DNA of 64,000 bases from Patescibacteria group bacterium (GTDB taxonomy: Bacteria > Patescibacteriota > Patescibacteriia > JAHJFT01), in the NCBI GenBank assembly GCA_028710985.1, contig JAQTTB010000001.1, positions 295,397-359,396 of the forward strand, read 5' to 3'. A program made the position numbers and the translations under genes. The notes below the pieces were generated by a model. That model made no database searches and was not told the origin of the DNA. It was given only the letters and a program-made list of their open reading frames with translations. Of the stretch, positions 18,195 through 36,300 are shown piece after piece. The number at the start of each line of letters is the position of its first letter. Position 1 is the stretch's first letter.

Positions 18195-18232
18195 GATAGC
18201 TATTTTTTAGCTAATTTTAGCGAAATTTAGAA

Positions 18233-18261
18233 TTGAAAATAGCCCTAATTCATGCTATAAT
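18233..18261 (+). promoter_or_regulatory. sigma70-type promoter TTGAAA-17-TGcTATAAT driving the surface-protein gene cluster
   Basis: -35 TTGAAA at 18233-18238. 17 nt spacer. Extended -10 TGCTATAAT at 18253-18261. Start codon at 18284. Confidence 0.5.
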
Positions 18262-18283
18262 ATAGAGTGAAAATCTAACAAAC

Positions 18284-19207
18284 ATGACTAAAGAAGAAAA
18301 AATTTTTGGTTTCTTGATTGTTTTTTGTATTACCCTGTTATTCACCGGGTGTATTCAGGCTATGTCCTCCACAAACTACATCATCAACTGGGATTCCTTA
18401 AACATTGGCGGCACGGACTTCAGTTCTTCAACCAACTACTTCATGAGTGACACCCTTGGCGAGATGTCAACCGGCCGCAGTTCAAGTACCAACTACTGGA
18501 TTTACGCCGGTTATCGTCAAGGCGTTACGGACATCCGATTTATCAGCTTTGACATTGGCGCCCAGGCAAACGCTTCGAAAATTGATTATTCGGCTTTCAG
18601 CAATGCGGGTAAGCAAGTGACGGTTTCGAGTGCGGTTGGCTATTCGGTGGGGGATTATATCGTGGCCGTGGAAAATGCCGGAGCAAGCCAGATGATTGCC
18701 ATCGGTAAAATTTCCAGCATTCTGGGAAACAGCCTCACGGTTGATAAGTGGGACGGCGATAATGCGGCCATGAGCGCGGTTCCAGCAGGAGGCAACGATT
18801 GGGTGTATGAATTATCCGGGAATACCGTAGATCTCGGGACACTGCTCACTGCCACGGTGGGTGTCGGCGTGAGCTTCAACGAAGTTAGTACCAACGCGGA
18901 CAATGGGTACACGGTTTCGGTAAAAGATGACGGAAATTTGCGGGACGGATTAAAAGACATTGACGACGTGATTGACGGCGCAGTCACGGCCGGCATTGAA
19001 GAATATGGCATTGAAACAGTTGGGACAAACGCGTCCGGCACCAATGATTTCGCTTTAGAATCTGCATTGGGCCAGTCGATACAAGTATCGACCGCTCCCT
19101 GGAACAGAGACCGCATCGGTGTAATTTATAAAGCCGGAATAAATTATGCGACGCAGGGCGGATCATATTCACACATTGTTTCGTATTATGTGACAGCAAA
19201 TTTTTAG
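18284..19207 (+). CDS. secreted/lipoprotein-like protein of unknown function (paralog 1; C-terminal motif SYSHIVSYYVTANF)
   Basis: 307 aa. N-terminal signal with a lipobox-like LFTGC. Repeated S(S)TNY motifs. Gly/Thr/Ser-rich beta-type composition. Shares its C-terminal motif with the next gene. Confidence 0.5.
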   Translation: MTKEEKIFGFLIVFCITLLFTGCIQAMSSTNYIINWDSLNIGGTDFSSSTNYFMSDTLGEMSTGRSSSTNYWIYAGYRQGVTDIRFISFDIGAQANASKIDYSAFSNAGKQVTVSSAVGYSVGDYIVAVENAGASQMIAIGKISSILGNSLTVDKWDGDNAAMSAVPAGGNDWVYELSGNTVDLGTLLTATVGVGVSFNEVSTNADNGYTVSVKDDGNLRDGLKDIDDVIDGAVTAGIEEYGIETVGTNASGTNDFALESALGQSIQVSTAPWNRDRIGVIYKAGINYATQGGSYSHIVSYYVTANF

Positions 19208-19485
19208 TAAGCAGGGGATTGATGATTGTCCATTTCGTGGACAGTGATTAGTTCCTTCAAAAGGTCGATAGTTTCATGCGATTTTAACTTGGCTTCCTAC
19301 CTTCAAGAACTTGTCTTTGAAGGTTTAGAGCTAAGGTTTTACGCCTGAGACAAAATTTTAAAAACTAAAAATTACTTGAGAGGACGAAATTTATTTCGCG
19401 TTCTTATCCGACTCCTTTCCGCCTGTGCGGCGGCAAAGGGGAAGACAAGAAACGGATAAGGCTCTTCTCAGGGGAAGGAGAAATT

Positions 19486-20532
19486 ATGAACAACTTAATT
19501 AAATTCCTGGTGTTCGTCATGGTATTCACCATGAGTCTTGGATTGTTTACGCCGGTTTACGCGGCCAATGTGGCGTTAAATCTCGGCGTGGATAGCAAGG
19601 TTGATATCTTTGACAGCACATACCCTATTGAAAACCAGTCGTCTGCCGAATTAGCGCTTTCAACGGCCGCGGATCTTTATTTTCAGTACGTAGCGGCAGG
19701 CAACTTTGCAGTAGGTCAGACGATTAGCATCGTGGCAACTACGCCATTGGTTATCGCGTCTTGCGTCGCACCAACAACCGATGCTGACCAGGACGGAACT
19801 CCGGATGGCACCGGTGCAGTTTCCGGAGACAACTATACCTACACCTTCTATGCCCCCACTACTCAAGCCGCCGCTTCAATCACCCTGTGCATCAATGTCG
19901 ATAACAGTATCGCAACTGCTGGCAATTATTCGTTCATCATGGCTGACGACCTCGGTGATTTCGGCGGAGCATTCCTGTACATCGGTACACCTGGGGGAGC
20001 GGCCAACGATGTTTATGTAACCGCGACAGTTACGAGCCAGGAACTTGAGTTCTGGATCCGGAATGCGGCGGATACAGCGGACACCAACGCTTGCGCTCTG
20101 GGAACGCTTAATACCACGTCGGTATCAACGTGCAACTATGCACTAAAGGTTCGCACCACGGCCACAATTGGATATACCATTTCCTGGACCTCGGACGGCG
20201 AACTTGACCGAAGTGGTACTGCGACCATTGATGCAATCGCCATGAACACGGCGGTTGCGGTCGGTGTTGAAGGTTATGGCGTAACGTTCACCCCGGGCGC
20301 TAACACCGACGGCGGTACTTGTACGGCGCAAAATATCTGGACAGCTGCCTACGATGACCCGGTTTCCACCACGGCGCAGAGTCTGGTGGTCTGCAACAAG
20401 GCCAACTTGCCAGCCGCAACCGGCGCAACGACATATATTCACAACATGGATCACCAGGCGGCAATTGATCCGGCTACTCCAGCGGGTAGTTATGATCAGA
20501 TTGTTACCTATTACGTGACCGCGCAATTCTAG
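19486..20532 (+). CDS. secreted protein of unknown function (paralog 2; C-terminal motif SYDQIVTYYVTAQF)
   Basis: 348 aa. Signal peptide MNNLIKFLVFVMVFTMSLGLFTPVYA. RBS GGAAGGAG 8 nt upstream. Thr/Ala/Gly-rich. The C-terminal 14 residues are nearly identical to the previous protein. Confidence 0.5.
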   Translation: MNNLIKFLVFVMVFTMSLGLFTPVYAANVALNLGVDSKVDIFDSTYPIENQSSAELALSTAADLYFQYVAAGNFAVGQTISIVATTPLVIASCVAPTTDADQDGTPDGTGAVSGDNYTYTFYAPTTQAAASITLCINVDNSIATAGNYSFIMADDLGDFGGAFLYIGTPGGAANDVYVTATVTSQELEFWIRNAADTADTNACALGTLNTTSVSTCNYALKVRTTATIGYTISWTSDGELDRSGTATIDAIAMNTAVAVGVEGYGVTFTPGANTDGGTCTAQNIWTAAYDDPVSTTAQSLVVCNKANLPAATGATTYIHNMDHQAAIDPATPAGSYDQIVTYYVTAQF

Positions 20533-20612
20533 GGTTATTGGTGCTCCAGGGCCTCGAAAAAATTTCGGGGCCCAACCAGCGCCATTAATCGACTAAAAAT
20601 TAATCAAAGAAT

Positions 20613-21569
20613 ATGAAGAAAATGTTTATTATGGGGTGTATTGCCTTGCTCATGGCCATGACTCTCGCGTCCGGGGCGCAGGCAATCGGCATCTTGCCGT
20701 TCATTGTGGAGGATGTGAACATCGCACCCGGCGAAATGGCCACTCGGACTTTCACTGTATACAACAATACCGAGAGCGAGCAGACGTATTATTTCGTGAC
20801 GCGAAATTTTACCACCCGGGGTGAGGAGGGAGAGGTCGTGATTACCGAAGAAAAATTCGGTCTTGCCACTTGGATTGAGTTTCCCTTCACTTCGATAACC
20901 ATTCCATCCAGCGAAAACCGGGAGATTGAATTTACCATCATAATTCCGCCGAATGCCGACGCCGGTGGCCATTTCGCCGCAGTGTTTGCTTCCACCAATC
21001 CGCCGGATGTGGAACAAGGAGTTGGCCTCTCTGCCAATGTCGGTACTCTGGTGTTCGTGCGCGTGTCCGGCGACATCATTGATGACGTGCGTTTGTTGAG
21101 TTTCCATACCAAGGGGGACCAGGCGCTGTTTAGTCACCTGCCGGTTAATTTTGAATACCGCATAGAAAATCGCGGAACGGTTCATGCCAAGCCAACCGGA
21201 AGAATTATGATGAGCGGCTGGTTGGGTAAAACCGACATTGACGCCAATCCCAAGGAAAATCGCATTCTGCCGTCATCCATCCGTCGCATTGAAGCGACCT
21301 GGGTAAAAGATTCAGGAGCAATCCGATCCGGAGGCTTTCTGACTGAACTCAAAAACGAATGGAACAATTTCGCCATTGGAAAATATACAGCCGCGCTAGA
21401 TTTGTCTTATGGCGTCGAAGGAAAAAATTTGACTACCGAGACGGCTTTCTGGGTATTTCCATGGCATGTTTGCTTAGCGGCTTTGCTAATTCTGATCGGG
21501 ACAATTGTTGCCATCATTCTCTATAACAAGATGGTTATCGCAACCGCCCGCAAAAGCGGCAAACTCTAG
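20613..21569 (+). CDS. cell-surface protein with signal peptide, beta-sandwich domains and C-terminal TM anchor (DUF916/DUF3324-like architecture)
   Basis: 318 aa. Signal peptide ...ASGAQA. Central beta-rich domains (TFTVYNNTESEQTYYFVTRNF...GGHFAAVFAST...). C-terminal hydrophobic helix FWVFPWHVCLAALLILIGTIVAIILY followed by a basic tail NKMVIATARKSGKL. Confidence 0.45.
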   Translation: MKKMFIMGCIALLMAMTLASGAQAIGILPFIVEDVNIAPGEMATRTFTVYNNTESEQTYYFVTRNFTTRGEEGEVVITEEKFGLATWIEFPFTSITIPSSENREIEFTIIIPPNADAGGHFAAVFASTNPPDVEQGVGLSANVGTLVFVRVSGDIIDDVRLLSFHTKGDQALFSHLPVNFEYRIENRGTVHAKPTGRIMMSGWLGKTDIDANPKENRILPSSIRRIEATWVKDSGAIRSGGFLTELKNEWNNFAIGKYTAALDLSYGVEGKNLTTETAFWVFPWHVCLAALLILIGTIVAIILYNKMVIATARKSGKL

Positions 21570-21582
21570 TTTGACATCGAGT

Positions 21583-23898
21583 ATGGGAAAATGCATTTAT
21601 AAAATAATTTTCATCGCGGTTTTGGTAGGAACCATTCTAGCAAACTCTTTTACATTTGCTGCGGATATGACGCACGTCTCGGTGTCCTTGTCTGCCCAGA
21701 TGATTGGCGAAGCGGCCAATACCACGATTCGTTTTCGTACGCCAACCGGCGTGGACAGTTCAACCGATACGATTGTCATTGCCTGGCCGGCGGAATTTAA
21801 TGTCGCGGGTATTGTTCTTACGGATATGGATTTATCACATGGCGCGGTCTCGGGCTATGAAACCGATCTTACCCTGGCGGCCGTTGCCGGCGCCGGCATC
21901 TGGGGCGCTTCGTGGGTCGGGCATACTCTGACCTTGGCTGCGCCGACCGACGCTGCGGCCGGCGAAATCGGAGTCAACGATTACGTGGTGCTCGAGGTCG
22001 GTACGCACGCATCATTCGGCGGTGCCGGTGCCAACCAGGTGGTGAATGCGGCGACTGCCGGAAGTTATAATTACACCATTAGCGGCACGTTTGGCGATAC
22101 TAAAAATCCGGCTGTCTACGTTGCGGATAACAACACGGTTGCCATCACCGGCACTGTGCTTGGCGATATTGAAACAATTTGCGACAACGGACTTGACGAT
22201 GACGGTGACACATTAATTGACTGCTATGATCCGGACTGCGCCGGCAATTCTTATTGCGTGCCGCCCGGCGGCGGCGGTGATACCACCCCGCCGGCTATCA
22301 CCAATGTAAACTGCATGGATATTACCCCAACCTCGTTTTCCGTGGTCTGGGAAACCAACGAAGCCGCAACCTCCTGCTCCGAATACGGGGAAACTTCGTT
22401 TTACGAACTCGGCATGCTCTGCAATATGTCGCTCGTCTGGTCGCATTCCGTGCCGTTTGTTGGTTTGGCCCAGCTTACGAATTACCATTTCCGTGTGATT
22501 TCCCGCGACGAATATTTCAACACCTCAATTAGCGATGATTATTCCTGCGCCACTTTGGGCGACACCGAAGCGCCGGTTATCAGCAATATCCGCGTGATAA
22601 ATATCACGGCCACGAGCGCGGAAGTTGTTTGGGACACCAATGAGCCAGCCACGTCGCAGGTTGATTACGGTCTGACCGATGTCTATGGTACGGAAACACC
22701 GACAGATTTCGCCTATGTTACCGAGCATCACGTTATTCTCACGGGTTTGACCCCGAACACGGATTATCATTTTCTGGTTCGCAGTTATGATATCGCGGGG
22801 AATGGCGCGGTTTCCGGTGACAATATTTTTCACACGCTCACGAGCGTGGATTCGCCGATTATTACCGATGTGCAGATTGTTGACATCACGGAAACTTCGG
22901 CACGGGTTATTTGGCAGACCAACGAGATTGCCGATTCCGAAGTTGATTACGGCACGACCCTAAGCTACGAGGTCGGCACCGTGGTTGACGGCGCGTTTGT
23001 GGTTGATCATTCAATTGACCTGAACAACCTTTTACCGAACACGCTTTATCATATCCGCGTACACAGCACCGATCCGGAATCCAATGAATCGGTTACTGGC
23101 GACTACACCTTTACCACTCTGCCGGATACCACCCCGCCGGCTAATGTGACAGACTTCACGGCAACAGTAACCGGACCGCTGGAGATTACTCTGACCTGGA
23201 TCAATCCGACCGACGCGGACTTCGCCGGCGTGCGCATTTGCCGCAGTACGGTCGCGTACCCGACCGATCCGTTGACCTGCGATATTATTTTTGAAGGCGC
23301 GGGCACGAGTTTTATTGACACCGACGTGGAGGCAGGCGTGACGTACTATTACACCAACTTTGCTTTTGACACATCCAATAATTTCGCTTCCGGCGCAATC
23401 GCTTCGGCCCGGGTTCCGTTGCCGGTTACTGTGACTTTTCTTGGGCATCCGGAAAAGCGCTGGCCGCGGACCGGCAACTGGAGCACGACTATTGAAATGG
23501 AGCTTCGCGAACCCGGTTCCCTGGCCTCGCTTGAAACAATTTTATTTGACACCAATTCGCTTGGCTATGGCACCTCTACCATGAATCTGTTGGAATACGG
23601 AGAAGCGTACGACTTTACGGCAAAGGGTTTTTCTCACCTGCGGAAAAAAATGAGTTCCGCGACCATCACCGAAACCAGCACTATGCTGGACTTCACTTTT
23701 GGAAACATCTTTAACCTCTATGCCGGTGACTGCCATCCGTCAAAAGACAATTTTGTAAATTCGTTAGACATTTCCACTTTAATTAATGACCTAATGGCTT
23801 CGGAACGGGTTAGCGATCTGAATAATGATAGCCAGGTGAATTCGCTTGATATTACTATTCAGATGGCCAATCTTATGAAGGACCTGGGGGATGATTAG
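21583..23898 (+). CDS. secreted protein with four FN3-like repeats and C-terminal tandem dockerin
   Basis: Start chosen at MGKCIYKIIF (signal peptide); the longer ORF start overlaps the upstream gene. Four repeats of the pattern TTPPAITNV.C.DITPTSFSVVWETNEAATS..EYG / ISNIRVINITATSAEVVWDTNEPATSQVDYG / ITDVQIVDITETSARVIWQTNEIADSEVDYG / NVTDFTATVTGPLEITLTWINPTD. The C-terminus has two dockerin calcium-binding segments (SKDNFVNSLDISTLINDL and DLNNDSQVNSLDITIQMANLM; D1-N3-D5-N9-D12 spacing). Confidence 0.6.
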   Translation: MGKCIYKIIFIAVLVGTILANSFTFAADMTHVSVSLSAQMIGEAANTTIRFRTPTGVDSSTDTIVIAWPAEFNVAGIVLTDMDLSHGAVSGYETDLTLAAVAGAGIWGASWVGHTLTLAAPTDAAAGEIGVNDYVVLEVGTHASFGGAGANQVVNAATAGSYNYTISGTFGDTKNPAVYVADNNTVAITGTVLGDIETICDNGLDDDGDTLIDCYDPDCAGNSYCVPPGGGGDTTPPAITNVNCMDITPTSFSVVWETNEAATSCSEYGETSFYELGMLCNMSLVWSHSVPFVGLAQLTNYHFRVISRDEYFNTSISDDYSCATLGDTEAPVISNIRVINITATSAEVVWDTNEPATSQVDYGLTDVYGTETPTDFAYVTEHHVILTGLTPNTDYHFLVRSYDIAGNGAVSGDNIFHTLTSVDSPIITDVQIVDITETSARVIWQTNEIADSEVDYGTTLSYEVGTVVDGAFVVDHSIDLNNLLPNTLYHIRVHSTDPESNESVTGDYTFTTLPDTTPPANVTDFTATVTGPLEITLTWINPTDADFAGVRICRSTVAYPTDPLTCDIIFEGAGTSFIDTDVEAGVTYYYTNFAFDTSNNFASGAIASARVPLPVTVTFLGHPEKRWPRTGNWSTTIEMELREPGSLASLETILFDTNSLGYGTSTMNLLEYGEAYDFTAKGFSHLRKKMSSATITETSTMLDFTFGNIFNLYAGDCHPSKDNFVNSLDISTLINDLMASERVSDLNNDSQVNSLDITIQMANLMKDLGDD

Positions 23899-23940
23899 GG
23901 GGCGGAGGCTTGGAGAGGAAGGAATTACTGCTTGGGGGCG

Positions 23941-24368
23941 AAGAATCTAGTATCTAGTATCTAGAATCTAGAAGATCAAAAACGAAAATACTTATATATG
24001 CAGACGAAATCATTTAGAGATTTGATTGTTTGGCAGAAGTCGCGCGATTTGGGGGTTGAGATATACAAGTTGACAAAGAGTATGCCCAAAGAGGAACTCT
24101 ACGGCATGGTGAGTCAGATGAGAAGGGCGGCGATCTCCATATCGTCCAATATCGCCGAAGGATATAATCGCGCGCATCCGATAGAGAAGAGGCAGTTTAT
24201 GCGCATCGCCTATGGTTCAGGATCGGAATTAGAAAGCCAGATCGAAGTCGCAAAGATTATATATCCAAAGTTAAGTTATAAGTTATCAGAAAGTTTATTA
24301 CTCGAAGTACTAAAGATCCTAAATAAATTTATCAACCGATAAAAGACTAGATTCTAGATTCTAGATTC
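23941..24368 (+). mobile_element. IVS-like cassette B: four-helix-bundle gene enclosed by TCTAGA-type inverted repeats (left AAGAATCTAGTATCTAGTATCTAGAATCTAGAAG, right AAAAGACTAGATTCTAGATTCTAGATTC)
   Basis: Arms at 23941-23974 and 24341-24368 are reverse-complementary. The right arm starts at the stop codon. Same arm family as 14671-14760 and 27095-27290. Confidence 0.65.
23998..24342 (+). CDS. four-helix-bundle protein (23S rRNA intervening-sequence protein family)
   Basis: 114 aa. MQTKSFRDLIVWQKSRDLGVEIYKLTKSMPKEELYGMVSQMRRAAISISSNIAEGYNR...IAYGSGSELESQIEVAK: the canonical family sequence pattern. Confidence 0.85.
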   Translation: MQTKSFRDLIVWQKSRDLGVEIYKLTKSMPKEELYGMVSQMRRAAISISSNIAEGYNRAHPIEKRQFMRIAYGSGSELESQIEVAKIIYPKLSYKLSESLLLEVLKILNKFINR

Positions 24369-24373
24369 ACCGT

Positions 24374-27112
24374 ATGAAATACGCACGCACAACAATAATA
24401 CTGCTTGCCATAATGGCAGGGCTCGCAATTGCCACGGCCGTCCACGCCGCGCGATTTGAATTATCGCCTGCGAGTGCGGCCCTGAATCAGGGTTGCGACT
24501 CGGTGGTGAACATCGTGCTTAGTACCGAAGGAAGCGAATCCGATGCCGCTAATGTCATTATCCAATACAATCCGGCTGAAGTGGAAATTACGGACACAAA
24601 CCCGGCCATTCCGGGAATCCAGATTGGCCAGGGCAATGCCTATGATATATACGCCGATAATATTGTCGATCCGGCAATCGGCCAGATTCGGTTGACCGGA
24701 TTTTCCATCGGCCATGCCTACAACAGCGGCTTATTGTACGGAGTCTTTGGTTCGATTCCATTCAAGAGCCGGCCCGGGATTGCGGCAGCCACTTTCACAA
24801 TTTTTTATGAGGCTGGGAGCACGCTTGATTCAAATATTGCTGAATACATCACAAGCGACGATCTTCTCACCGGCGTGCGAAACGGATCTTATACATTCGC
24901 GGTTGGCGAGTGCGTGAGCGATGTAACACCGCCCTGGGTTACGAATCCTCAGCCCGCGCCTGGTTCAACCGGCGTGCCGCTTTCAAGCAACACTACTTTT
25001 CACATTCTGGATAACATGTCCGGAGTTGACCTCTCGTCGCTCCGCATCAATGTCCAGGGAATTGAATATAATTATGACGGCGTCAACCGTTTCAGCTATT
25101 CTGGCACGGCGCTCGATTACGCAATCACGATTGATCCGATTGCCGATTTTCCGGACGGCGTTATGGTGCGCGTCGAAGTAAACGGCCGCGATCTTGACGG
25201 CAACACCATGTCACCTTATCGCTGGTATTTTAACGAACCGCCGATTCCGCCGCCGGTCCCGCCAACCTGTACCGAGCTCGGTTGCCCGGAACCTGATGAA
25301 TGTGCTCCGCCGGAAGAACTTCCGGCGTGTGAAGAACCCGAGGTTTTGCCCATCCCCGAACCCACTGTGCCGCCCGGAGAGCAGATAAGTATTGATGCCA
25401 TTGAATTCTTGGCTGCGAACCGCACGGTTCGTTTGTATCCCGACGGAGTCAATGCCGTGCGCGTACTTGTGGGTACTTCGTACAGCGTGCAAATCAGCCA
25501 TGAAAATCTCGCCAAAGAAGTGGGCTCAATCTGGTGGTATTCGGGTGCGTCAACATATCAACTCGCGCAAAGTGCGGCGGGTGATTTCTGGACCGACATC
25601 GGCGCCTATGCTTCAATCACCGCGGTTCCTTCACACATCATTATAAATTACGCAGATGGCACCATTGATGTGCGCGACTTTACGGTGCGGACCGTGCCGC
25701 GAGGCAATGTGTACGAACAAATCGGCGAAAATGAATCCATGGTTTCCGGCGCCAGGGTGACGATTTATCAAGCCGGCACCACGCCTGGAATCTGGAATGC
25801 CGGAACCTACAATCAGATAAATCCGGTATGGACTTCAAATGACGGCCAGTTCGGCTTTTATGTGCCGCAGGGCTATTACTACATTGAGGTGCAAAAGCCG
25901 GGATATGATCTGGCGCGGTCGCTCTCGTTCTATGCGCGCAGTTCCATTGTTAATAATCCCATGCTTCTTACGAAAATTCCCGGACCGGTTACTCCGATTG
26001 ACGCGATTACACAGACCGCAGTACTGGTCGGCGAAACCGTGGCCGATATGGCCGCGCGGACACAGTCCGCGATTGTCGCCGCCATTCCGGCAACTCAGGA
26101 ACAGATTGATTCAGCCGTCGGTATTATCGCGCCCGCCGCCATCGGCCTCGCATTCCTGAATCTCGGTACCGCGATTTCATTCGCTAATCTGATTCCGTTC
26201 TTGTGGGGGCTCTTTACCCAACCGCTGCTCTTGCTCGGCCGGGGCAAAAGAAAAAGATGGGGAGTGGTTTACAATTCACTCACCAAGATACCGATTGATC
26301 TCGCTATCGTCCGCCTGATTGAAGCCCGGACCGGAAAAATAATTCGCACTCGCATCACCGACCGTGAGGGCCGATATTTCTTCATGGCCAAACTGGGAAT
26401 TTACCGCATTGAAGTAAAAAAGCCGGGTTTTCTGTTTCCCACGATAAATTTACGCGATGCCAAGGAGGATTTTCAGTATCTGGATGTTTATCACGGTGAG
26501 ATTATTCAGGTTCGCGAAGAAAGTCGCCAAATTACGGCTAATATTCCGCTTGATCCGATCGCCGGCGCCGAGAAATCAAAATGGCTTATTGTTCGTTCAT
26601 ACTTAAAGAAGGCGCAACAGTACGCGGCTTCACTTTCGGTTATGGTGGCCATCGGACTCTTGGTCGTCAACCCCTCATGGTTTATGCTCGGGTATCTTAT
26701 TCTGCAAATCGCTCTTCTTCTGCTTTTCCGTCGCCTGGCTCAGCCTGCCAAGCCAAAGGGCTGGGGCATAGTTTACGACAAAAAAACCCGCCGGCCGATT
26801 GCCAATGCCATTGTGCGTATCTTTGACCTTGAATTCAGCCGTCTTTTGGAAACCCAGGTCACGGACGGACAGGGCAAGTATTCATTCCTGGTCGGCAGTA
26901 ATCGGTATTTCACCACCTACGAAAAGCCCGGTTTCGTGGTAAAGAAATTAGCGCCAATTGATTATTCAAAAATGAAAGAAAGAACCATGGTGGCTTATGA
27001 TGTGGGGCTGGAGCGGGCCAAGGACATTGCGGCATCAGAGCAGAAAAATGCGGCCAGTGGGTCAGTGCAAGTCGGAGGCGGAGAAGAGTGGAAGAACGAG
27101 AATAGAATCTAG
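24374..27112 (+). CDS. membrane-anchored surface protein: N-terminal cohesin-like domain, Ig-like domain, Pro-rich linker, three CarbopepD_reg-like domains, internal TM helices
   Basis: 912 aa. Signal peptide. Residues about 26-160 (FELSPASAALNQGCDSVVNIVLSTEG...ANVIIQYNPAEVEITD...) resemble the cohesin beta-sandwich pattern. Linker reads EPPIPPPVPPTCTELGCPEPDECAPPEELPACEEPEVLPIPEP. Three G.Y...V.KPG(Y/F) modules (YYYIEVQKPGYDL; GIYRIEVKKPGFLF; YFTTYEKPGFVV) are preceded by TD.(D/E)G.(Y/F) motifs. Two or three hydrophobic helices lie around residues 560-600 and 740-790. Confidence 0.5.
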   Translation: MKYARTTIILLAIMAGLAIATAVHAARFELSPASAALNQGCDSVVNIVLSTEGSESDAANVIIQYNPAEVEITDTNPAIPGIQIGQGNAYDIYADNIVDPAIGQIRLTGFSIGHAYNSGLLYGVFGSIPFKSRPGIAAATFTIFYEAGSTLDSNIAEYITSDDLLTGVRNGSYTFAVGECVSDVTPPWVTNPQPAPGSTGVPLSSNTTFHILDNMSGVDLSSLRINVQGIEYNYDGVNRFSYSGTALDYAITIDPIADFPDGVMVRVEVNGRDLDGNTMSPYRWYFNEPPIPPPVPPTCTELGCPEPDECAPPEELPACEEPEVLPIPEPTVPPGEQISIDAIEFLAANRTVRLYPDGVNAVRVLVGTSYSVQISHENLAKEVGSIWWYSGASTYQLAQSAAGDFWTDIGAYASITAVPSHIIINYADGTIDVRDFTVRTVPRGNVYEQIGENESMVSGARVTIYQAGTTPGIWNAGTYNQINPVWTSNDGQFGFYVPQGYYYIEVQKPGYDLARSLSFYARSSIVNNPMLLTKIPGPVTPIDAITQTAVLVGETVADMAARTQSAIVAAIPATQEQIDSAVGIIAPAAIGLAFLNLGTAISFANLIPFLWGLFTQPLLLLGRGKRKRWGVVYNSLTKIPIDLAIVRLIEARTGKIIRTRITDREGRYFFMAKLGIYRIEVKKPGFLFPTINLRDAKEDFQYLDVYHGEIIQVREESRQITANIPLDPIAGAEKSKWLIVRSYLKKAQQYAASLSVMVAIGLLVVNPSWFMLGYLILQIALLLLFRRLAQPAKPKGWGIVYDKKTRRPIANAIVRIFDLEFSRLLETQVTDGQGKYSFLVGSNRYFTTYEKPGFVVKKLAPIDYSKMKERTMVAYDVGLERAKDIAASEQKNAASGSVQVGGGEEWKNENRI

Positions 27113-27290: not shown

Positions 27291-27339
27291 TGAAGTCAGT
27301 GCTCTTGCGCAAAATGAGCCCTAACCTGAGTCCGAAAGT

Positions 27340-30300
27340 ATGAACTCAATCGGAGGAAGACAATTCAAGCGGACTTTAAAGAAAACCATTGTTTTGCAAA
27401 TGGCAGTTTTGATGTTGCTTGTCTGGTTCGGTGCGTTCGTGACTCCGGAAAAAGCCCATGCTGCGATTAATAAATACATCAACTATCAGGGAAAACTGCT
27501 TGATTCTTCCAAAATCCCGGTGGCGGACGGAACCTATGGCATTGAATTCAAGATTTACGATGCCGTCACTGCCGGCAGTGAACTCTGGTCAGATTCCTTT
27601 GATGTTGCTGTTGATGACGGTCTATTCAGCATTTTGCTGGGTTCAAGCGGCACGCTTGACTTGAATTTTGAAGATGAAGCCGGCTACTGGCTGGGTGTTA
27701 ATGTTGAGGCTGATGGCGAAATGACGCCGCGCAAAGAAATTGGCGCCGCGGCTTATGCATTCAACTCGGATTTATTGGACGGATTGCATGCCACGACTAC
27801 CGGCGCAATTTCTTCGGCCGTGGTCGCGCTGACTGCCAACGGCAATCTCACCATTACCGGCGATCCCCAAGGCGGCGCGGTTACACAGGGTTCCCTATAT
27901 ATTAATCCAGCCGCTCCGGCAGCCGATGAAACGCTTTTGGGTATCGCAAATAACGGCTCGCAGCGGCTGCTTTTGGATGCGGAAGGCGATCTGACGGTCG
28001 CCGGATATGTCTCAACCACACAATTATTTATTGATAGTATTGATGTTCAAACCAGCGCTTCCCGGACAACCTCAGGCGCGTATATCATTGGTGTTGCCGA
28101 CAACTTCTCGTGGTCGGCCTCAACCAATGTCCAGTTCGTGCTTGAGGATTTGGATCTCGCAATCACTAACGCCTCATCTTCAGCCAACCTTTGGACCGAT
28201 GCAGGTACATATATATATAACACCCCGGCCGGTGACATTAACCGATTCTATGACAACGGCGATATTAAGTTTGACCAAGTGAGTGATACATTATTTATTG
28301 ATCAAAGCGCGCACAGTATTGGTATCTTTACAACTTCTCCTACGGCCGCGGCACTTGAGGTTGATGCAAATTCACTTGGAACAACTACGGCAAACAAAAT
28401 AATTTTAGCAAACACAACCGCCGCCGGCGCTGGTGCACAACAGGTTTCGCCTGCATTAAATTTTAGAAGTCAAGGTTGGTCACTTGCAGAAAGTGCATCT
28501 CAAGAAGTGGATTGGCAAGTGTATGTCCTACCTCATCAATACGCTGGTCGACAGGCGACCTCAGATTTATATTTTCAGTATAAATTGGGCGGTGAATCAA
28601 GTTATAGAACTGGTATTATTTTTACCGCTCCTTTTGATAGCGGATATGCATCTTTAGCGGCATATAATGGCACTTTTTATAATAGCGTAAGTGTAAGCGC
28701 AGTTCTAAGTGTTAGCACCAATGCTTATCTGGCATATACATCTACTGCCTACAGGGTCGGCATCGGCACCAACAGCCCCGGCTACAAGCTGCATGTTGTT
28801 GGCACGAGCGGTTTTGATGGCAGCCTTGCTGTTTCATCAACCAATCTCATTTTTGACGCCGCCGGTACAGCCTTCGCAAGTTCAACCGACCGAACTCACT
28901 CCGGCGCTTACTACTTGGGTGTTGCCGACAATTTCTCCTGGTCGGCTTCAACCAATGTCCAGTTCGTGCTGGAAGATTTGGACCTTGCGATCACCAACGC
29001 CTCATCATCGGCCAATCTTTGGAAAGCAAACGCTTCATATATATATCCGGCCTCAACCACGGCCAATGTTTTCCCTTCATCAAACAATGCGCAAAGCCTA
29101 GGAGCGTTTGGTAGTGCCTGGAAAGATATTTATGCTTCGGGCACGTCATATTTAACCAACGTAACGGCGGCAAATTATGTTAATGTTTCCGACGCGACAG
29201 TCGGCTATAAAATCGGCGGGAACATAATTTTAAGAAATCCCTATACCCGCAATATACTTCTTGGTCAAAGCGCGGGAGCGGCTCTTAATTCAGATGGCAC
29301 GGACAATATGTTTCTCGGTTATTTGGCCGGAGCTGCAGCCACTTCTTCAGATTACAATACTTTCATCGGCTCTTACGCCGGCTATGCCAACACTGCCGGT
29401 ACTGCCAATGCCTTCATTGGCTATGTCGCCGGCTATGCCAACACCACCGGCGCTAATAATATTTTCATCGGCTCTTACGCCGGCTATACCAACACCATCG
29501 GCGCAAATAACTCCTTCATCGGTTATGCCGCTGGCCGCTACAGCACTACCGGCTCCTACAACTCCTTTATTGGTAATGCCGCCGGCTATTCAAACACCAC
29601 CGGTGCTGCCAATGCTTTCATCGGCTATGGTGCTGGCTACTATAACACCACCGGCGCGAATAACACCGCGATCGGTTCTTATGTTTTATACGCCAACACC
29701 ACAGGCGCGAATAATAGCGCGATCGGTTTTTACGCCTTAAGCGCCAACACCACTGGCGCGAATAACAGCGTGATTGGTTATTTTGCTTCATTTTACAACT
29801 CATCGGCCACGAGCACAGTGGCAATCGGTTATCAGGCGGCTCGAGGAACCGCGGCATACAGCAACCAAAACGGCGTGTACATTGGTTACAATGCCGGGTA
29901 TGCGGCTCAAACAGGGTCGGATAACAATATAATGATTGGTTATCAAGCCGGAGACAGTATAACAACGGGATCTGGCAATTTGCTTATTGGCTATGATGTT
30001 GATAATGCCACAAGCACGGCTTCAACCAATTACATAAATATCGGAAATACCATCCAGGGCTGGATCGGTGGAAAAATCTATCCATACAATCATGGAACAC
30101 AGGATTTGGGCGCATACGGTTATGCCTGGAAAGACATCTGGGCTTCAGGCACGGCCTTCCTCGCGAACGCGAATCTCTCCGGCAATGCTACTGTCCTGGG
30201 CTATGTCTCAACCACCCAAGTTTATATAGATAGTATAGATATAGAAGGCCAGGGTACGGGCAATACCACGGCCGGCGCCTACAAAATCGGCACTTATGAC

Positions 30301-33300
30301 GAATTTGACTGGTCCGCAAGCACCAATGTGCAGGATGTGCTTGATGACCTGGACGCCACTCTGACCACGGTTTCTACCTCGGCCATGCTTTGGACCGACG
30401 CGGGTACATATATATATAATACCCCGGCCGGAGACATTAACCGGTTTTATGATACCGGCAGTGTCAACTTTGATGCCACCAACACCACGCTTTATGTTGA
30501 CGCCATGAACAATCGCGTTGGTGTCGGCACGAATAACGCTTTAAGCGTTTTCCATATTCTTGGCAGCTACCCGCAGTTATTAATTAATGACAGTTCGGTT
30601 CCGAGCTTCCTGTCTTTGAGGGGTGATGCCAATATCTTCTTCAACAATGCCTCCAACTACAGGATCGCTAGCCAGGCTTATGCAAACCGCGGCACGGCCA
30701 CGGGCGATACAGTGAGATTTACCATTCAGGGCTCCAATGGATATGTGGGTATTGCCACTTCAACTCCGCAAGTGATGCTCCATGTGTACGACGGGAGTTT
30801 CCGTCAGCAAGATACAACCGGCGGCAAGACCGGGCAATTGACCATCTCCACCCTCTCTTCTGGTACGCTAATTCAGGAAACCAATAACGGTCGTATTACG
30901 TATAAGGCATATGCTCATACTTGGCAGACTCATGCGGGAACAGAAATTTTCCGAACCAGTGACGGGTTGACCGCAGTTATATTTAATGGAAATATTTTTT
31001 CTTACGGTAATCTTTACACCTCATCTTCAAAATTATTTGTTGGAAGTGACACAACTCTCGCCGAATCAACCGACCGCCTTGATTCCGGCGCCTACAATGT
31101 GGGCGTGGCCGACAACTTCTCGTGGTCGGCTTCAACCAATGTCCAGTTTGTGCTGGAAGATTTGGACCTCGCCATCACCAACGCCTCATCATCGGCCAAT
31201 ATCTGGAAAGCAAACGCTTCATATATATATCCGGCCTCAACCACGGCCAATGTTTTCCCCTCATCAAACAATGCGCAAAGCCTGGGTGCGTTTGGCAGCG
31301 CCTGGAAAGATATTTACGCTTCAGGCACAGCGTATTTAACCAACGTAACGGCGGCAAATTATGTTAATGTTTCCGACGCGACCGTCGGATATAAAATCGG
31401 CGGGAACATTATTTTAAGAAATCCCTATACTCACAATACACTTATCGGGCAAAACGCAGGGGCAAACATCAATTCAGATGGCACGGATAATACTTTTATT
31501 GGTTATTTCGCTGGGTACACAGCCACTTCAACAGATTATAACGTTTTTATCGGTCCTTACGCCGGCCAGAACAATGCTGCCGGCGCTAATAATTCCTTTA
31601 TCGGCTATGCCGCTGGCAAAGACAACACTACTGGCAGTGGCAACTCCTTCATCGGTTATGTCGCCGGCTATGCCAATACCATTGGCAATTATAACTCCTC
31701 CATCGGCTATGCCGCCGGCTATGCCAACACCACCGGCTCTTACAACTCCTTTATCGGCAATGCCGCCGGCCAAACCAACACCACCGGCGCGAATAACACC
31801 GGGGTTGGTTATTCCGCTTTATACTCCAACACCACCGGCGTGAATAACACCGCGGTTGGTTATTCCGCTCTATTCTATAACTCATCGGCCACAAGCACGG
31901 TGACAATTGGTTATCAGGCGGCGCGAGGAACCGCGGCATATAGCAACCAAAATGGCGTGTATATTGGTTACAGAGCGGGGTATGTTGTTCAAACAGGGTC
32001 GGATAACAATATAATGATCGGTTTTCAAGCCGGAAACAGTATCACAACCGGCGCTAATAATATATTGATTGGTTATGATGTTGATACACCGCTCGCAACC
32101 ACATCTAACTACTTAAACATTGGCAATCGGATTTATGGAAGTCTAACGGATGGAATTTTAAATATCCAGCCAAACGGTGATTCCAACAATTATTCCCGAT
32201 TTGCGACGGTTGATGCACAACCCATACTATATTTCGTTTCATCAACCATGACTAACTATTCCGGCTTCCGCTTGAATTCCTCTACCGGCGAAATGGAGTA
32301 TCGCGATGAGGATTCAGCGACGTATACACCATTTGACACAATCGCGGCCGGAGCGGGTATCTGGTCAACCGGCGCTTCATATATATATCCGGCCTCCACC
32401 ACGGCCAATGCTTTCCCCTCATCAAACAATGCGCAAAGCCTGGGTGCGTTTAGCAGCGCCTGGAAAGATTTTTATGCCTCCGGAACTTCATATCTCACCG
32501 GCGTATTGAATTCTGACGGAGCTCTTGGCGCGCCAAGCTACTCTTTCGCCGCAGATTCTGATACAGGTATGTTTTGGGCGGGTACGGGCAATGTTCGTTT
32601 CTCTTCAAACGGAGCGAGCATAGTGACCATGGGCAATTCTGAAGTGGATGTCGGCGGTTCAATTCTGCCAACCGCCAATAATACCCGAGATTTAGGCGCT
32701 TTCTCTTATGCCTGGCGCAATATCTATGCCTCCGGCACGGCATTCTTAACCGGTATTCAAAATTCAGTCGGAGCCGTCGGCACGCCAAGCTACAGTTTTG
32801 CCGGAGATACAAACACAGGAATCTACAGTCCATTATCCGATGCGGTTGCGATCGCTGTAAATGGTGCTCAACGATTCCAGGTAACCGCAACTGGCGCACA
32901 AGTAACCGGAACTGTCTATTCGGACGCAAATAATTCACGGGACATCGGCTACTTTGGAAATGCCTGGAATGATATCTTCGCGTCCGGTACAGCCTTCCTC
33001 GCGGATGCAAATCTCTCCGGCAATGCCACGGTCCTGGGTTATGTCTCTACCACGCAGTTATTTATTGATAGTATTGATGTTCAAACCAGCGCTTCCCGGA
33101 CAACCTCGGGCGCTTATGTCATTGGTGTGGCCGACAATTTCTCCTGGTCCGCCTCAACCAATGTCCAGTTCGTGCTGGAAGATTTGGACCTTGCGATCAC
33201 CAACGCCTCCTCATCCGCCAATATCTGGAAACTCGGGGCTTCATATATATATCCGGCATCCACCACGGCCGATATCCTGGCCGGCGCCGCAACTCCGGAC

Positions 33301-36300
33301 GGTGTCTCGCCGTTCTATGTTGATATTGCCGGCGGCGACAGATTACTTCAGCTGTATAAAGTATATGGCGGCACGCTCGCCGCCGGCGCAGCCAACTATG
33401 GTCTGCACGCCCAGGTTTCAAGCACGGTTGATGTGGCGGATCAAATTTATCAAATGTATGGCGCCTATAGCCAAGCCGAATTCGCCGGCACTTATGATTC
33501 CGGCTCAGGCGGCTCGATTACGGTTACTGGTTCATACTCTGAAGGCCGGTCCGCGACTAATACCATGTATATTTACGGCGCGTATAATTATGGTCTTCAG
33601 GAAGCCGGCGCGACCGCGGATACGGTTTACGGCGCATATAATCGGGCAATTTCCGCTGGGTCAACAAATACCGGCGTTTATGGCACATTTTCCGATGCTC
33701 AAGGCGACGGCATAAGCCGCGCTTATGGCGTATATTCAACAGTAACCGGCGGCACATCCAATTATGGTTTCAGTGCCTCGGTAACCGACGGCGCGGCCGG
33801 ATCAAACTACGGCGTCAATCTTATGGTCTCGGACGGCCTGGGTTCTAACTACGGTATTTCCGCCAGTGTTTCGGGTTCAGCCGGTGGCACAGTGCAATAC
33901 GGCGGCCAATTCACTGTCGGGGGCGCGGCAGGTGATACAAATTACGGCATTGATGCCGAAGTAACCGGATTCGGTGTTGGTGATACGAACTATGGTGTTT
34001 ATGCTAATGTGACCGGCGCGGCGGCTAACTGGGCCGGCTGGTTTGCGGGAGGCGACGTTTATGTGGAAAATAAATTATTTGTTTCAAGCTCGGAGCTTTT
34101 TATCGGCACTGATACCGCTCTCTCCGAATCAACCGGCCGCCTTGATTCCGGCGCCTACAATGTGGGTGTTGCCGACAATTTTGCCTGGTCGGCCTCAACC
34201 AATGTCCAGTTCGTGCTTGAAGATTTGGACGCGGCAATTACCGCCGCTGGAGGCATCTGGACCGACGCAGAAGGTTATATTTATCCGACCGCGGCCGGCG
34301 ATTATTACGACACCGGCGCGCGCATATACGACAACGGCGAAATCAACACCGATTCAAATCTCGTGGTTGATGGCTATGCCGCTTTCGGCACGGCAACTGA
34401 CACCTCAAAAATCGTGAATATTGAAAACACCGCCACGGATAAATACGGTTTGTATTCTCATACCACATCCACTTCTCTTATTCCGGGCGACTGGTATCAA
34501 GTACCTTCGGGCGCGGCCGGATATTTCCTGGCCGATGGCAGCTACGGTGGCGTTCGTACAAATACCGGAATTATGAGCCGGGCGGTGGGCGTTGCATTAT
34601 TTAATTCCGGCAATGTTAGCCATGCGTATAATGCGACAAATTATAATTTCGCGTATTTTGGCACCGCGAGCGGCACAAATTCCTATGTTGTTTATGGCTT
34701 GAATCCGAGCTATGGCACGACCGTTGATGCCTGGGGTGGATATCTTGAAGTGAATACAACGGCAAATGGTGGTACGTCTGATCACGTCGGCATGGAAACC
34801 AAGGTTGGCGGCGCGGATGCTAACTGGGGTTATAAAACAACCACCTCGGCTCCGTCGGGTGAAAAAGCCTATGGTTTTTGGGCCAATGTTGATGTGCAAG
34901 CCGCTTCGGAGTCCTACGGTATATATTTGACACTGGATGATTTAACCGGAGTCAGTACCAACCTTTATGGCTCAAGTATGAGTGTGAAGGGCAACGCAGC
35001 AGGCTATGCCGGTACTATTTACGGCAATAAGATCGTTGCCCAATATGGCGGTACTATTTACGGCCTTGATATTGATATTGATAACATTCATAACTATGGC
35101 TATGGCGTCAATGTATCAGTTGACGGCGCCAGCTATAGCCCCGTGGTCTACTTGGCGGGAAAAAGTTTAAAAAATTTCGGTGTGCGCGGCATGGCGGCTT
35201 CTGACACCGCGGATGTGGTTGGAGTTTACGGTTTGGGTACGGGCAACGGTGGCGACAATAGTATTTTTGGCATGGTCGGTAAAGCCACGGGCGGCATCTC
35301 TCAATATGGCGCTTATCTTGAAGCGGTTGGTGACACTTCGGATGCTACCTATGGCCTTTATTCAAGAACCAATACCGGAGATTCGGCCACAAGTTACGGC
35401 GTGTATTCATATGCGGTCGGCGGCGCCGATTCTACTAACTACGGTGTCTATGCCGTGGCCACGGACGGTGCTTCAACTCCGGTCGTGAACTATGGCATCT
35501 TCGCGTCGTCATCCGCCGCTACAACAAACTGGGCCGGCTGGTTTGGCGCCGGGGATGTTTATGTGGAAAATAAATTATTTGTTTCAAGCTCAGAGCTTTT
35601 TATCGGTACGGATACCGCTCTCTCCGAATCAACCGACCGCCTTGATTCCGGCGCCTACAACGTCGGCGTGGCCGACAATTTCTCCTGGTCCGCCTCAACC
35701 AATGTCCAGTTCGTGCTGGAAGATTTGGATGCCACTCTGACCACGGTTTCCACCTCGGCCATGCTTTGGACCGATGCGGGTACATATATATACAACACTC
35801 CGGCCGGGGACAAGAACCGCTTCTATGATAACGGCGCCGTGCTCTTCGGCCAGTCATGGAATACTTTCTTTGTCAGCGGCACCTCGAACTACGTGGGCAT
35901 TGGCACGGCCACGCCTTCAACCACTCTGCACATCGTTGGAACGTCATATCCTTTTGTACTGGTCGAAGGCAGTTCCATCTCAAAATTTACCGCACTCCGT
36001 GCCGACAGCAAGATTTTCTTTACGAGCACGGAAAATTTTAATATCAGCAGCCAGCCATATGCCAACCGCGGAACCGCCGCGGGTGAGACATTAAGATTTA
36101 CCATCCTGGGCTCTAATGGCTATGTGGGTATCAATACCGCGTCGCCGACTTCCACTCTTCAGGTCACGGGCGGAGATGTGCATTTCCAGGCAACCGGCGG
36201 AGCCCCGGGTACATATTGGGACTACGATACCGGTTATCTGGGCATCGGGACGACCGGGCCAGTGGCGAAATTGAATATTAGTGTTTCTGGTGACGGGACT

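Follow-up and report, generated by a model that had tools for sequence, protein, structure and literature searches.

What do the secreted proteins encoded side by side at one locus of a Patescibacteria genome build on the cell? Candidate phyla radiation (CPR) bacteria are believed to live fixed to host cells, and little is known of the organelles with which they attach. The question is raised by a 64,000-nt stretch of contig JAQTTB010000001.1 (assembly GCA_028710985.1), which is called the window here and to which the coordinates of all open reading frames (ORFs) refer. The original prediction, made from the sequence alone, had described four genes as a locus resembling the WxL surface clusters of Firmicutes. 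Its four ORFs were found where it placed them (18284-19207, 19486-20532, 20613-21569 and 21505-23898), with lengths of 307, 348, 318 and 797 aa, the last counted from the TTG at 21505. ORF1-ORF4 thus stand, but the functional unit reaches a fifth gene beyond the span described, ORF5 (24374-27112); all five lie on the + strand. We think that the locus is probably a divergent, minimal operon for a pilus of the Pam type, in which five genes would suffice for a chaperone-assembled, usher-less fibre held together by donor-strand exchange. This answer draws on the domains and homologies found, on conserved strand motifs, on the order of the genes and on whether ORF4 and ORF5 are split or fused among related loci.

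The first description of Pam pili, in 2026, came from a single cultured species, Ca. Mycosynbacter amalyticus (Saccharimonadia), of which two filaments were solved by cryo-EM (bioRxiv 10.64898/2026.03.03.709456). The Pam pilins, PamA/B/E, are formed by a nine-strand beta-sandwich N-terminal domain (NTD), a single linker strand and a truncated immunoglobulin (Ig)-like C-terminal domain (CTD) that takes up the following subunit's linker, whereas the tip, PamT, consists of a CTD only. PamC/D are chaperones similar to PapD/FimC that keep a C-terminal transmembrane (TM) helix, and the anchor PamR is RbmA-like, with two FnIII domains besides its N-terminal strand and its C-terminal TM helix. Neither an usher nor trans-envelope assembly machinery was reported (bioRxiv 10.64898/2026.03.03.709456).

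The first two genes provide the most direct connection to this system. ORF1 and ORF2 both begin with a hydrophobic segment like that of a signal peptide and, as had been noticed, they share their last 14 residues (10 of 14 identical, fitting the noted pattern exactly). The likeness extends over the C-terminal ~148 aa, which BLASTP aligns at 35% identity with an E of 7e-12, so that it is not due to chance. Checked in homologs elsewhere, as had been proposed, the terminal motif turned out to be conserved: G-x-Y-x-Q-x-V-T-Y-Y-V-T-A-N-F is kept in 28 database homologs, with G334 and Y336 invariant and Y342 at >=90%, and the form '...T.aG.Y....tY..T..F' recurs in 125 CTDs of other loci, where G and Y are >=90% conserved. 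We infer that this motif is the last strand of an acceptor domain, lining a donor-strand groove. The statement that the two proteins have no recognisable domain holds for Pfam, which gave no match to either of them, and fails for NCBIfam, in which models derived from the Pam preprint (bioRxiv 10.64898/2026.03.03.709456) match both below threshold. ORF1 is matched by CPR_pilus_PamT (NF058579; E 2.9e-11, 43 bits, curated cutoff 240) and by CPR_Pam_pilin_C (NF058581; E 3.2e-11, 43.5 bits, curated cutoff 55). The latter model also matches ORF2 (E 1.9e-10, 41 bits) and 27 of the 29 members of the ORF2 family. The similarities are significant, although they stay below the naming threshold, and because of them we place the locus, as a probable distant member, with the CPR Pam pilus system.

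The architectures of the two paralogs suggest a tip and a pilin. In ORF1, the signal peptide is followed by a ~150-aa N-terminal module with three S-x-N-Y repeats and by an acceptor CTD (aa 178-307), which a hidden Markov model (HMM) of the CTD recognises at aa 177-307 with an E of 6e-34. Neither a pilin NTD nor the V.VTATV donor motif was found in ORF1. This arrangement, retained in 29 orthologs of related loci, is PamT-like, although ORF1 is no equivalog of PamT. The AlphaFold2 (AF2) model of ORF2 (mean predicted local distance difference test, pLDDT, 86) comprises, after the signal peptide, two beta domains, an NTD at aa ~30-167 and a CTD at aa ~187-348. Residues 176-182, within the linker NDVYVTATV that connects them, are the sole stretch with pLDDT <50 outside the signal-peptide region, as expected for a strand that folds only inside the groove of a neighbour. 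The linker is among the best-conserved parts of the family (N174, V176, A180 and V182 at >=90%), and its consensus over 92 pilins reads 'dd.V.vtAtV'. The conservation of both the linker and the C-terminal motif agrees with the preprint, in which conservation is highest in the donated linker and in the site that binds it (bioRxiv 10.64898/2026.03.03.709456). By analogy with those pilins, the ORF2 CTD would be a truncated Ig domain with an open groove into which the linker of another subunit inserts in trans.

The architecture predicted for ORF3 is borne out by its AF2 model (pLDDT 91), which shows a signal helix at the N-terminus, then two beta-sandwich domains, a TM helix (aa 284-316, nt 21462-21560) and the basic tail ARKSGKL. 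ORF3 thereby resembles the Pam chaperones in having a two-Ig chaperone-like fold with a C-terminal TM helix, encoded within the operon. A Foldseek search of the Protein Data Bank (PDB) placed 9i1y and 9i25 first ('WxLIP from E. faecium', E 3e-11), followed by the chaperones CfaA, CsuC, PapD and EcpB; for the chaperones and WxLIP together, the target-normalised TM-scores are 0.43-0.54 and the root-mean-square deviation (rmsd) is 8-9. Both WxLIP entries were released in January 2026, and 9i25 shows WxLIP bound to a long WxL protein.

The relation of this 318-aa protein to DUF916, on which the original prediction had staked itself, was found, at the level of remote homology. ORF3 alone scores 15.5 bits against Pfam WxLIP_PGBD (DUF916, PF06030; cutoff 27.3), and the model matches 20 of 34 members of the ORF3 family with a best E of 3e-8; for PF11797 (DUF3324), no match was listed in the Pfam scans of ORF3 or its family. 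One ORF3 homolog is named 'DUF916 domain-containing protein' by NCBI, and all tblastn matches of ORF3 among plasmids are annotated DUF916 genes of Actinobacteria. The best match of the ORF3 family profile among PDB sequences is EfmWxLIP1 (E 1e-3), whereas a direct search of ORF1-ORF3 against the sequences of solved structures returned no match. Profile-profile alignment by hhalign gives a probability of 99.6% and E 1.1e-24 with three actinobacterial DUF916 proteins over 289 columns, which include both domains and the TM helix, and 98% and E 1.6e-13 with four DUF916+DUF3324 proteins of Firmicutes over 229 columns. Judged from these profiles and from the predicted model, ORF3 is a remote homolog of the DUF916/DUF3324 WxL-interacting proteins. 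Two or three chaperone paralogs are encoded in the related loci L023, L030, L046, L049, L058, L059, L066 and L082; in some loci, a second CTD-only gene lies between them, an arrangement that recalls PamC, PamD and PamR of M. amalyticus.

ORF3 might also be read as a PamR-like anchor with an RbmA fold and a TM helix, the subunits then assembling by themselves in the way of archaeal threads or cannulae, with no chaperone. In favour of this, RbmA ranks among the top Foldseek matches of ORF3 (E 8e-10), PamR likewise combines two FnIII domains with a C-terminal TM helix, and the window contains one protein of this kind where M. amalyticus has three, PamC, PamD and PamR. We consider this very unlikely, since RbmA superposes on ORF3 much worse (TM-score 0.26-0.38, rmsd 15) than the chaperones and WxLIP do. 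Moreover, ORF3 has no N-terminal strand of the V.VTATV type, the features of a terminator and anchor are already present in ORF4, and WxLIP has been solved in complex with a WxL client (9i25) and, according to AF2 prediction, completes the WxL sandwich with one of its strands. A membrane-anchored chaperone is the role that we retain for ORF3.

A fibre assembled in this way needs an end, and ORF4 has the corresponding composition. Its reading frame is as described, but its start is probably the ATG at 21583, 14 nt past the ORF3 stop, instead of the TTG at 21505, because the alignments of homologs begin at the former. The protein had been taken for a large surface protein; it is not a generic one, as its N-terminus consists of a pilin NTD and a donor strand. 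This part comes after the signal peptide and is followed, in this order, by an acidic disulfide repeat, four FN3 domains, a beta module and a dockerin. An HMM of NTD and linker built from 92 CTD-bearing pilins matches ORF4 at aa 68-218 with an E of 1.1e-28, whereas the CTD HMM found nothing in it, so that ORF4 would give a strand and could take up none, as would suit a chain terminator. An NTD HMM built from the close ORF2 homologs alone does not reach ORF4; the link between the two NTDs was obtained with the wider pilin HMM or with hhalign (E 0.004). In other loci, 23 further NTD-only proteins occupy the position of ORF4. The four FN3 repeats hold up, three stretches being matched by Pfam fn3 (E 3.4e-19) and the fourth being an FN3-like repeat recognised by eye. 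The 'double dockerin' is better read as a single module, a borderline dockerin made of two canonical Ca-binding repeats. Between the donor strand and the FN3 stalk, nt 22171-22257 resemble acid_disulf_rpt (NF033662; E 1.6e-9, 37.3 bits, cutoff 41).

How such a terminator could be attached to the cell is suggested by a comparison with related genomes. Behind its signal peptide, ORF5 has a domain assigned through its homologs to the cohesin family (aa 25-178, nt 24446-24907), followed by a Big_5-like domain and a C-terminal part (aa 304-883, nt 25283-27022) in which TM segments, called by a crude hydropathy scan, are interleaved with CarboxypepD_reg domains. The mature N-terminal 155-175 aa are a widespread module with 800 representatives; Pfam Cohesin is matched by 9 of 20 homologs of this region (34-50% identity, best E 2e-8), and in a profile search of the PDB, the second and third matches are cellulosome cohesins, weakly (E 0.48 and 1.4). 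In six related genomes, a single protein of 1100-1200 aa stands at the position of ORF4. The N-half of these fused proteins aligns to ORF4 aa 27-635 (E 1e-48 to 1e-81) and the C-half, with TM segments and CarboxypepD_reg, to ORF5 aa 304-883 (E 1e-80 to 1e-100). Exactly two segments lie outside these alignments, the dockerin-bearing C-terminal ~160 aa of ORF4 and the cohesin-bearing N-terminal ~300 aa of ORF5. The closest relatives, L089 and L090, keep the split form with both modules. From the split and fused forms and the leftover modules, the anchor appears to have been divided into two genes whose products are rejoined by cohesin-dockerin binding; as far as the sequences indicate, the ORF4 dockerin probably binds the ORF5 cohesin. 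A PamR-type protein (N-terminal strand, two FnIII domains, C-terminal TM helix) is not present, and its role apparently falls to ORF4 and ORF5. The fused orthologs of L019 and L020 carry an acidic disulfide segment similar to that of ORF4, further downstream.

The presence of a dockerin in ORF4 and of a cohesin-family domain in ORF5, together with the recurrence of cohesin-like and dockerin-bearing genes in related loci, could instead point to a cellulosome-like or S-layer-like scaffold. Its core would then be the dockerin/cohesin pair, with the small secreted proteins as cargo or as neighbours unrelated to it. Like cellulosomal anchoring, the locus combines a putative C-terminal type-I-like dockerin with a cohesin-family extracellular N-terminus on a cell-bound partner two genes away. 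In contrast, the pair here would rejoin the halves of a pilus anchor which other genomes encode as one polypeptide, and the Pfam scan revealed no enzyme or carbohydrate-binding domains. The fused orthologs keep everything else while lacking both dockerin and cohesin, which makes these modules connectors and not the purpose of the system. A scaffold would also leave the tight linkage of pilin, chaperone and terminator (67 of 68 loci) unexplained, and we regard it as extremely improbable next to a pilus with a two-part anchor.

The same gene order recurs well beyond the closest relatives. A scan of one genome per species, with a profile made from 12 sequences, returned 230 loci encoding an ORF3 relative, of which 80 were kept; 68 of them had enough sequence for the upstream counts, and the downstream counts cover 66. 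The chaperone gene is directly preceded by a CTD gene in 67 of 68 loci, and by an NTD+CTD pilin, in one to four copies, in 62. Upstream of the pilin, 59 of 68 loci have a CTD-only gene with an N-terminal part of ~130 to >2000 aa. The downstream genes are more varied: an NTD-only terminator like ORF4 (19 of 66 loci), a ~300-aa protein ending in a dockerin (29 of 66), or other arrangements (18 of 66). In 22 of the 29 dockerin proteins, a V.VTATV-type strand stands right after the signal peptide and is followed by a Gly-rich linker, and cohesin-like proteins, often with TM segments, are encoded further downstream in these loci. This survey of downstream genes indicates that donor-strand-only proteins with interchangeable anchors are a general feature, dockerin-cohesin being a common variant. 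The system is widespread in species-representative genomes and can shrink to a single tip, pilin, chaperone and terminator; for the pilus base, at least three kinds of attachment seem to be interchangeable, the cohesin-dockerin joint included. The labels of metagenome-assembled genomes among the 80 loci include Uhrbacteria, Magasanikbacteria, Doudnabacteria, Peregrinibacteria, Gracilibacteria, Paceibacterota, Nomurabacteria and others, and the nearest named relatives of the locus are Ca. Uhrbacteria. Seven contigs (L009, L018, L019, L022, L026, L029 and L036) are labelled Gammaproteobacteria, Rikenella, Polynucleobacter or Pirellulales; these labels are likely placeholder names or the result of mis-binning and not a real occurrence outside the CPR.

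Assembly could proceed in the following way if the cryo-EM-based Pam model and chaperone-usher biology are taken as guides. All products would be exported by Sec. ORF3, held in the membrane by its C-terminal helix, would cap the incomplete CTD of each subunit with its two Ig-like domains. ORF1, because it has an acceptor CTD and no donor strand, would start the fibre and end up at its tip. ORF2 subunits would be added successively, the NDVYVTATV linker of each incoming subunit displacing the chaperone strand from the groove of the previous one, a groove lined by the C-terminal strand ...VTYYVTA(N/Q)F. ORF4, which has a pilin NTD and a donor strand and lacks a CTD, would plug the last groove, offer none of its own and so end growth. 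Finally, as in known cohesin-dockerin pairs, the dockerin at the end of the ORF4 FN3 stalk would probably bind the N-terminal cohesin of the multi-pass ORF5, tying the base of the fibre to the cell. The coordinates of the features are collected in Table 1.

Table 1. Features of the pilus locus and its surroundings in the window
Feature	Position (nt)	Strand	Basis
Promoter-like site: TTGAAA, 17-nt spacer, TG-TATAAT; 23 nt upstream of ORF1	18233..18261	+	11/12 positions + extended -10 TG
ORF1, probable tip-type subunit	18284..19207	+	CTD HMM, NCBIfam matches, conserved gene order
ORF1 C-terminal motif SYSHIVSYYVTANF, putative last beta-strand of acceptor domain	19163..19204	+	Sequence, BLASTP, conservation
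Structured tip-pilin spacer, 278 nt, unusually long	19208..19485	+	Fold z-scores -3.8, -2.95
ORF2, probable major pilin	19486..20532	+	AF2 model, NCBIfam CPR_Pam_pilin_C, conserved gene order
ORF2 linker, aa 172-184, with putative donor strand NDVYVTATV	19999..20037	+	Conservation, AF2, Pam analogy
ORF2 C-terminal motif SYDQIVTYYVTAQF	20488..20529	+	Sequence, conservation
Very stable two-tier stem-loop directly after pilin gene, no U-tract	20533..20590 (core 20549-20573)	+	Folding
ORF3, putative membrane-anchored two-Ig-domain chaperone, PamC/D-like, WxLIP/DUF916 homolog	20613..21569	+	AF2, Foldseek, hhalign
ORF4, probable terminator/anchor subunit, start corrected	21583..23898	+	NTD+linker HMM, Pfam fn3, no CTD
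ORF4 putative donor-strand motif NNTVAITGTV, aa 209-218 of 797-aa reading	22129..22158	+	hhalign + HMM alignment with pilin linker
ORF4 dockerin module, two Ca-binding repeats	23743..23859	+	Dockerin_1; conserved in L089, L090 orthologs
23S-rRNA-IVP / four-helix-bundle gene between anchor halves	23998..24342	+	Pfam 23S_rRNA_IVP E 1e-31
ORF5, membrane protein probably holding pilus base	24374..27112	+	Cohesin-family homologs, fused-protein alignments
Giant 5476-aa repetitive secreted protein, conserved downstream neighbour	27340..43770	+	N-terminal homology

Several results weigh against a Pam-type pilus with this anchor. The scores of ORF1 and ORF2 against the Pam models are far under the curated cutoffs, so that the two proteins would form a distant subfamily. 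A Foldseek search with the ORF2 model, in a PDB set that contained neither PamA nor PamB, gave only generic tandem-Ig adhesins, with TM-scores of ~0.25. Because of the RbmA match mentioned above, ORF3 could in principle be an anchor and not a chaperone. Dockerin_1 is borderline in ORF4 (24.1 bits as a fragment, 22.5 with the whole protein, cutoff 22.9), and the ORF5 N-terminus, as a single sequence, has no Pfam Cohesin or PDB match. The promoter is a consensus match only, and the number of such sites in the region is not above that expected from shuffling. Altogether, the locus is known here from its genes and from predicted models.

Compared with the pili of M. amalyticus, the locus, as read here, has in common the CPR host, Sec-exported subunits, a pilin with NTD, linker and CTD, and a CTD-only first subunit. 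It likewise has a membrane-held two-Ig chaperone, a donor-strand-only protein at the end or anchor, apparently no usher, and a neighbouring gene for a giant fibre-like protein. The differences begin with the sequence similarity, which is below threshold (E ~1e-10, 41-44 bits). There are one pilin and one chaperone here versus three pilins and two chaperones there, and in the terminator a complete pilin NTD is joined to four FN3 domains and a dockerin, where PamR has a strand, two FnIII domains and a TM helix. Anchoring would go through a second protein, a multi-pass membrane protein that bears a cohesin; genes for ATP-synthase, CorB or MFS are not among the neighbours, and the nearest relatives belong to Ca. 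Uhrbacteria and not to Saccharimonadia or Microgenomatia. The design of the terminator and anchor is new, as is a chaperone homologous to WxLIP: neither the link between Pam and WxLIP nor a cohesin-dockerin anchor was found in the Pam preprint or the literature searched. WxL, DUF916, DUF3324, cohesin and dockerin are not mentioned in the preprint (bioRxiv 10.64898/2026.03.03.709456), and in the literature searched, 'WxL' and 'donor strand' occur together only in a 2013 review, each term once.

The chaperone-usher pili (Pap/Fim, CFA/I, Csu, Ecp) offer a more distant parallel. They share with the locus the two-Ig chaperone fold and the division of roles among a tip that lacks a donor strand, a major subunit that has a strand as well as a groove, and a terminator. 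The conserved C-terminal strand here has a Gly 14 residues from the end and aromatics near the end; Pap subunits have a similar Gly(-14) and penultimate-Tyr motif. Unlike in those systems, there is apparently no usher and no outer membrane, the chaperone is tethered to the membrane, the subunits have two domains, and the donor strand is an inter-domain linker instead of an N-terminal extension. Sequence homology to chaperone-usher pili was not detected, apart from a faint Pfam 'Fimbrial' match in 2 of 125 CTDs (E ~0.01). No usher family appeared in the general Pfam scan of ORF1-ORF5, a scan made with neither an usher-specific model nor a beta-barrel predictor. A sortase-type pilus was also considered and dropped, as the same scan returned no sortase, LPXTG signal or sortase-pilin domain.

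The relation to WxL clusters, with which the locus had been compared from the beginning, deserves a separate discussion. These clusters, known from Firmicutes and Actinobacteria, encode small and large WxL proteins, a WxLIP (DUF916-DUF3324-TM) and often an LPXTG protein (PMC9772566, PMC10599100). WxL proteins are described there as peptidoglycan-bound platforms, and the words 'pilus' and 'polymer' are absent from both papers (PMC9772566, PMC10599100). In the published AF2 models, a WxLIP strand completes the WxL beta-sandwich, and an N-terminal WxL strand, carried on a long unstructured segment, covers the WxL platform (PMC9772566, PMC10599100). The locus could thus encode a surface complex of this kind that does not polymerise, with ORF1 and ORF2 binding the wall, ORF3 as a membrane holder and ORF4 as a displayed adhesin.

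The likeness in gene order does hold. A WxLIP-type protein is paired in both cases with at least two secreted proteins that share a C-terminal domain, one of them small and one with extra N-terminal domains, and the homology of ORF3 to WxLIP extends over both Ig domains and, in the comparison with actinobacterial proteins, takes in the TM helix as well. The terminal strands are also alike, G-x-Y-x-x-T-L-T-W/L-x-L in WxL proteins and G-x-Y-x-Q-x-V-T-Y-Y-V here. The strand G-x-Y-x-x-x-V-T-Y-x-V, which resembles the distal WxL motif, is the sole region that hhalign pairs: the pairing is confined to the last ~18-20 columns (E 0.012-0.04). Furthermore, the short LPXTG proteins of two inspected WxL clusters share an N-terminal strand with their WxL neighbours, in parallel with the donor-strand-only anchors here.

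A reading of the two paralogs as divergent WxL proteins is not supported, as they match the Pam models of NCBIfam and not Pfam WxL (PF13731), which at E<=1 finds none of 29 full-length proteins (ORF1, ORF2 and 27 homologs) and none of 125 CTDs. The absence of a WxL motif, which had been noticed, is confirmed, and ORF1 and ORF2 fail every WxL sequence test. Alignments of the pilin family by hhalign with 4, 120 and 7 WxL sequences (actinobacterial and Firmicutes) gave E 0.012-0.34 over <=20 columns, and the family profile found no match beyond the last strand among PDB sequences, the WxL chain of 9i25 included. These negatives are weak evidence of absence, because in a control alignment actinobacterial and Firmicutes WxL proteins themselves reach only E 1.9e-4. 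ORF1 and ORF2 were rejected as WxL proteins, since Pfam, hhalign and PDB-profile searches all ended without a match beyond the last strand. The locus also differs from WxL clusters in that ORF1-ORF5 include no sortase or LPXTG protein, in that ORF3 is under the Pfam DUF916 cutoff and in that no DUF3324 match was seen. Firmicutes, with a thick peptidoglycan wall, are the hosts of >91% of known WxL proteins, whereas 80 of the 80 loci are of CPR type, and an ORF3 identical to that of the window occurs in a metagenome-assembled genome that NCBI lists as 'Patescibacteria group bacterium'.

A static, wall-bound complex is further opposed by the donor-type strands at the domain junctions of ORF2 and ORF4 and by the lack of an acceptor in ORF4, which point to growth and termination of a chain and not to a platform. 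In addition, pilins of the kind whose model matches the paralogs have been seen as filaments by cryo-EM (bioRxiv 10.64898/2026.03.03.709456). We therefore judge a non-polymerising WxL complex unlikely and keep the Pam-type pilus.

The homology of ORF3 to WxLIP may nevertheless have a deeper meaning. We tentatively consider, with more doubt than conviction, that Pam pili and WxL/WxLIP clusters are two branches of one old family that is usher-less, works by donor strands and has a membrane-tethered chaperone and no outer membrane. If this were true, WxL proteins would be more than wall-bound platforms, being chained or tethered by strand donation. The small WxL protein would then be a pilin, the large one a tip adhesin and the short LPXTG protein a donor-strand-only anchor. 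CPR bacteria would have swapped the anchor for a TM helix (M. amalyticus), a fused multi-pass domain (many Uhrbacteria-like genomes) or a cohesin-dockerin pair (the window and ~29 of 66 other loci).

Two sets of WxL sequences offer leads in this direction. In 105 actinobacterial small WxL proteins, a conserved strand 'ddVDV.V.I' stands right after the signal peptide, with a variable linker behind it; this strand looks similar to the CPR donor motif 'dd.V.vtAtV'. The LPXTG proteins of the WxL clusters of Enterococcus (L092, 2179-2547) and Listeria (L095, 3602-3898), the two inspected Firmicute clusters with an LPXTG gene, comprise hardly more than an N-terminal strand, a linker and a sorting signal. 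The strand S-N-G/K-[AG]-x-[IV]-x-F (S-N-G-x-[IV]-x-F) is common to these proteins and their WxL neighbours. Such parallels come from few sequences and serve as leads, not as tests.

Other observations on WxL clusters were made along the way. In the E. innesii cluster, there is also a gene for a class A sortase. On actinobacterial plasmids, DUF916 genes adjoin genes of small WxL-like proteins (L001, 3795-6843; L002, 5196-7038; L087, 433-4581). The DUF916 neighbour in Streptomyces is a GH43-ricin-WxL fusion, and GH43 or LamG proteins are encoded nearby in Cellulosimicrobium and Clavibacter, which suggests WxL-type display of glycoside hydrolases outside Firmicutes.

Regarding expression, the promoter-like site before ORF1 is the best match in 17500-27400. 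The 278-nt spacer between tip and pilin genes ends with a strong ribosome-binding site, AAGGAG, before ORF2. The stem-loop after the pilin gene folds with -34.6 kcal/mol (z = -7.05), and 0 of 200 shuffled sequences fold as well. Two-tier hairpins with other stem sequences are found after the pilin gene in L089 (3154-3236), L090 (9893-10000) and L091 (9902-10000). The hairpin may raise the output of the pilin relative to the downstream genes, acting as a stabiliser of the mRNA or as a partial terminator; papA and fimA likewise have a stable hairpin after the major-pilin gene. Rfam and tRNA scans of the locus found nothing.

The genes flanking the locus are polA, Wzy/TPR, holA, rpsT and rmuC. 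Between the two anchor genes, the 23S-rRNA-IVP gene is present in L090 and absent in L089 at the same site. It thus behaves like a mobile passenger and is probably not part of the pilus machine. A second '23S rRNA intervening sequence protein' gene lies at 15744-16118 of the window.

Downstream of ORF5, the giant protein is homologous over its N-terminal ~150-220 aa (E 1e-18 to 1e-25) to proteins of 1.2-1.9 kaa encoded after the anchor gene elsewhere. A conserved 'tail fibre-like protein' is likewise reported near pam operons (bioRxiv 10.64898/2026.03.03.709456). A Pfam scan of ~3,150 of its 5476 residues gave nothing usable. The protein contains seven copies of a module with NFSWSASTNVQFVLEDLD, and other regions of it match giant proteins in L007, L009, L041 and L067.

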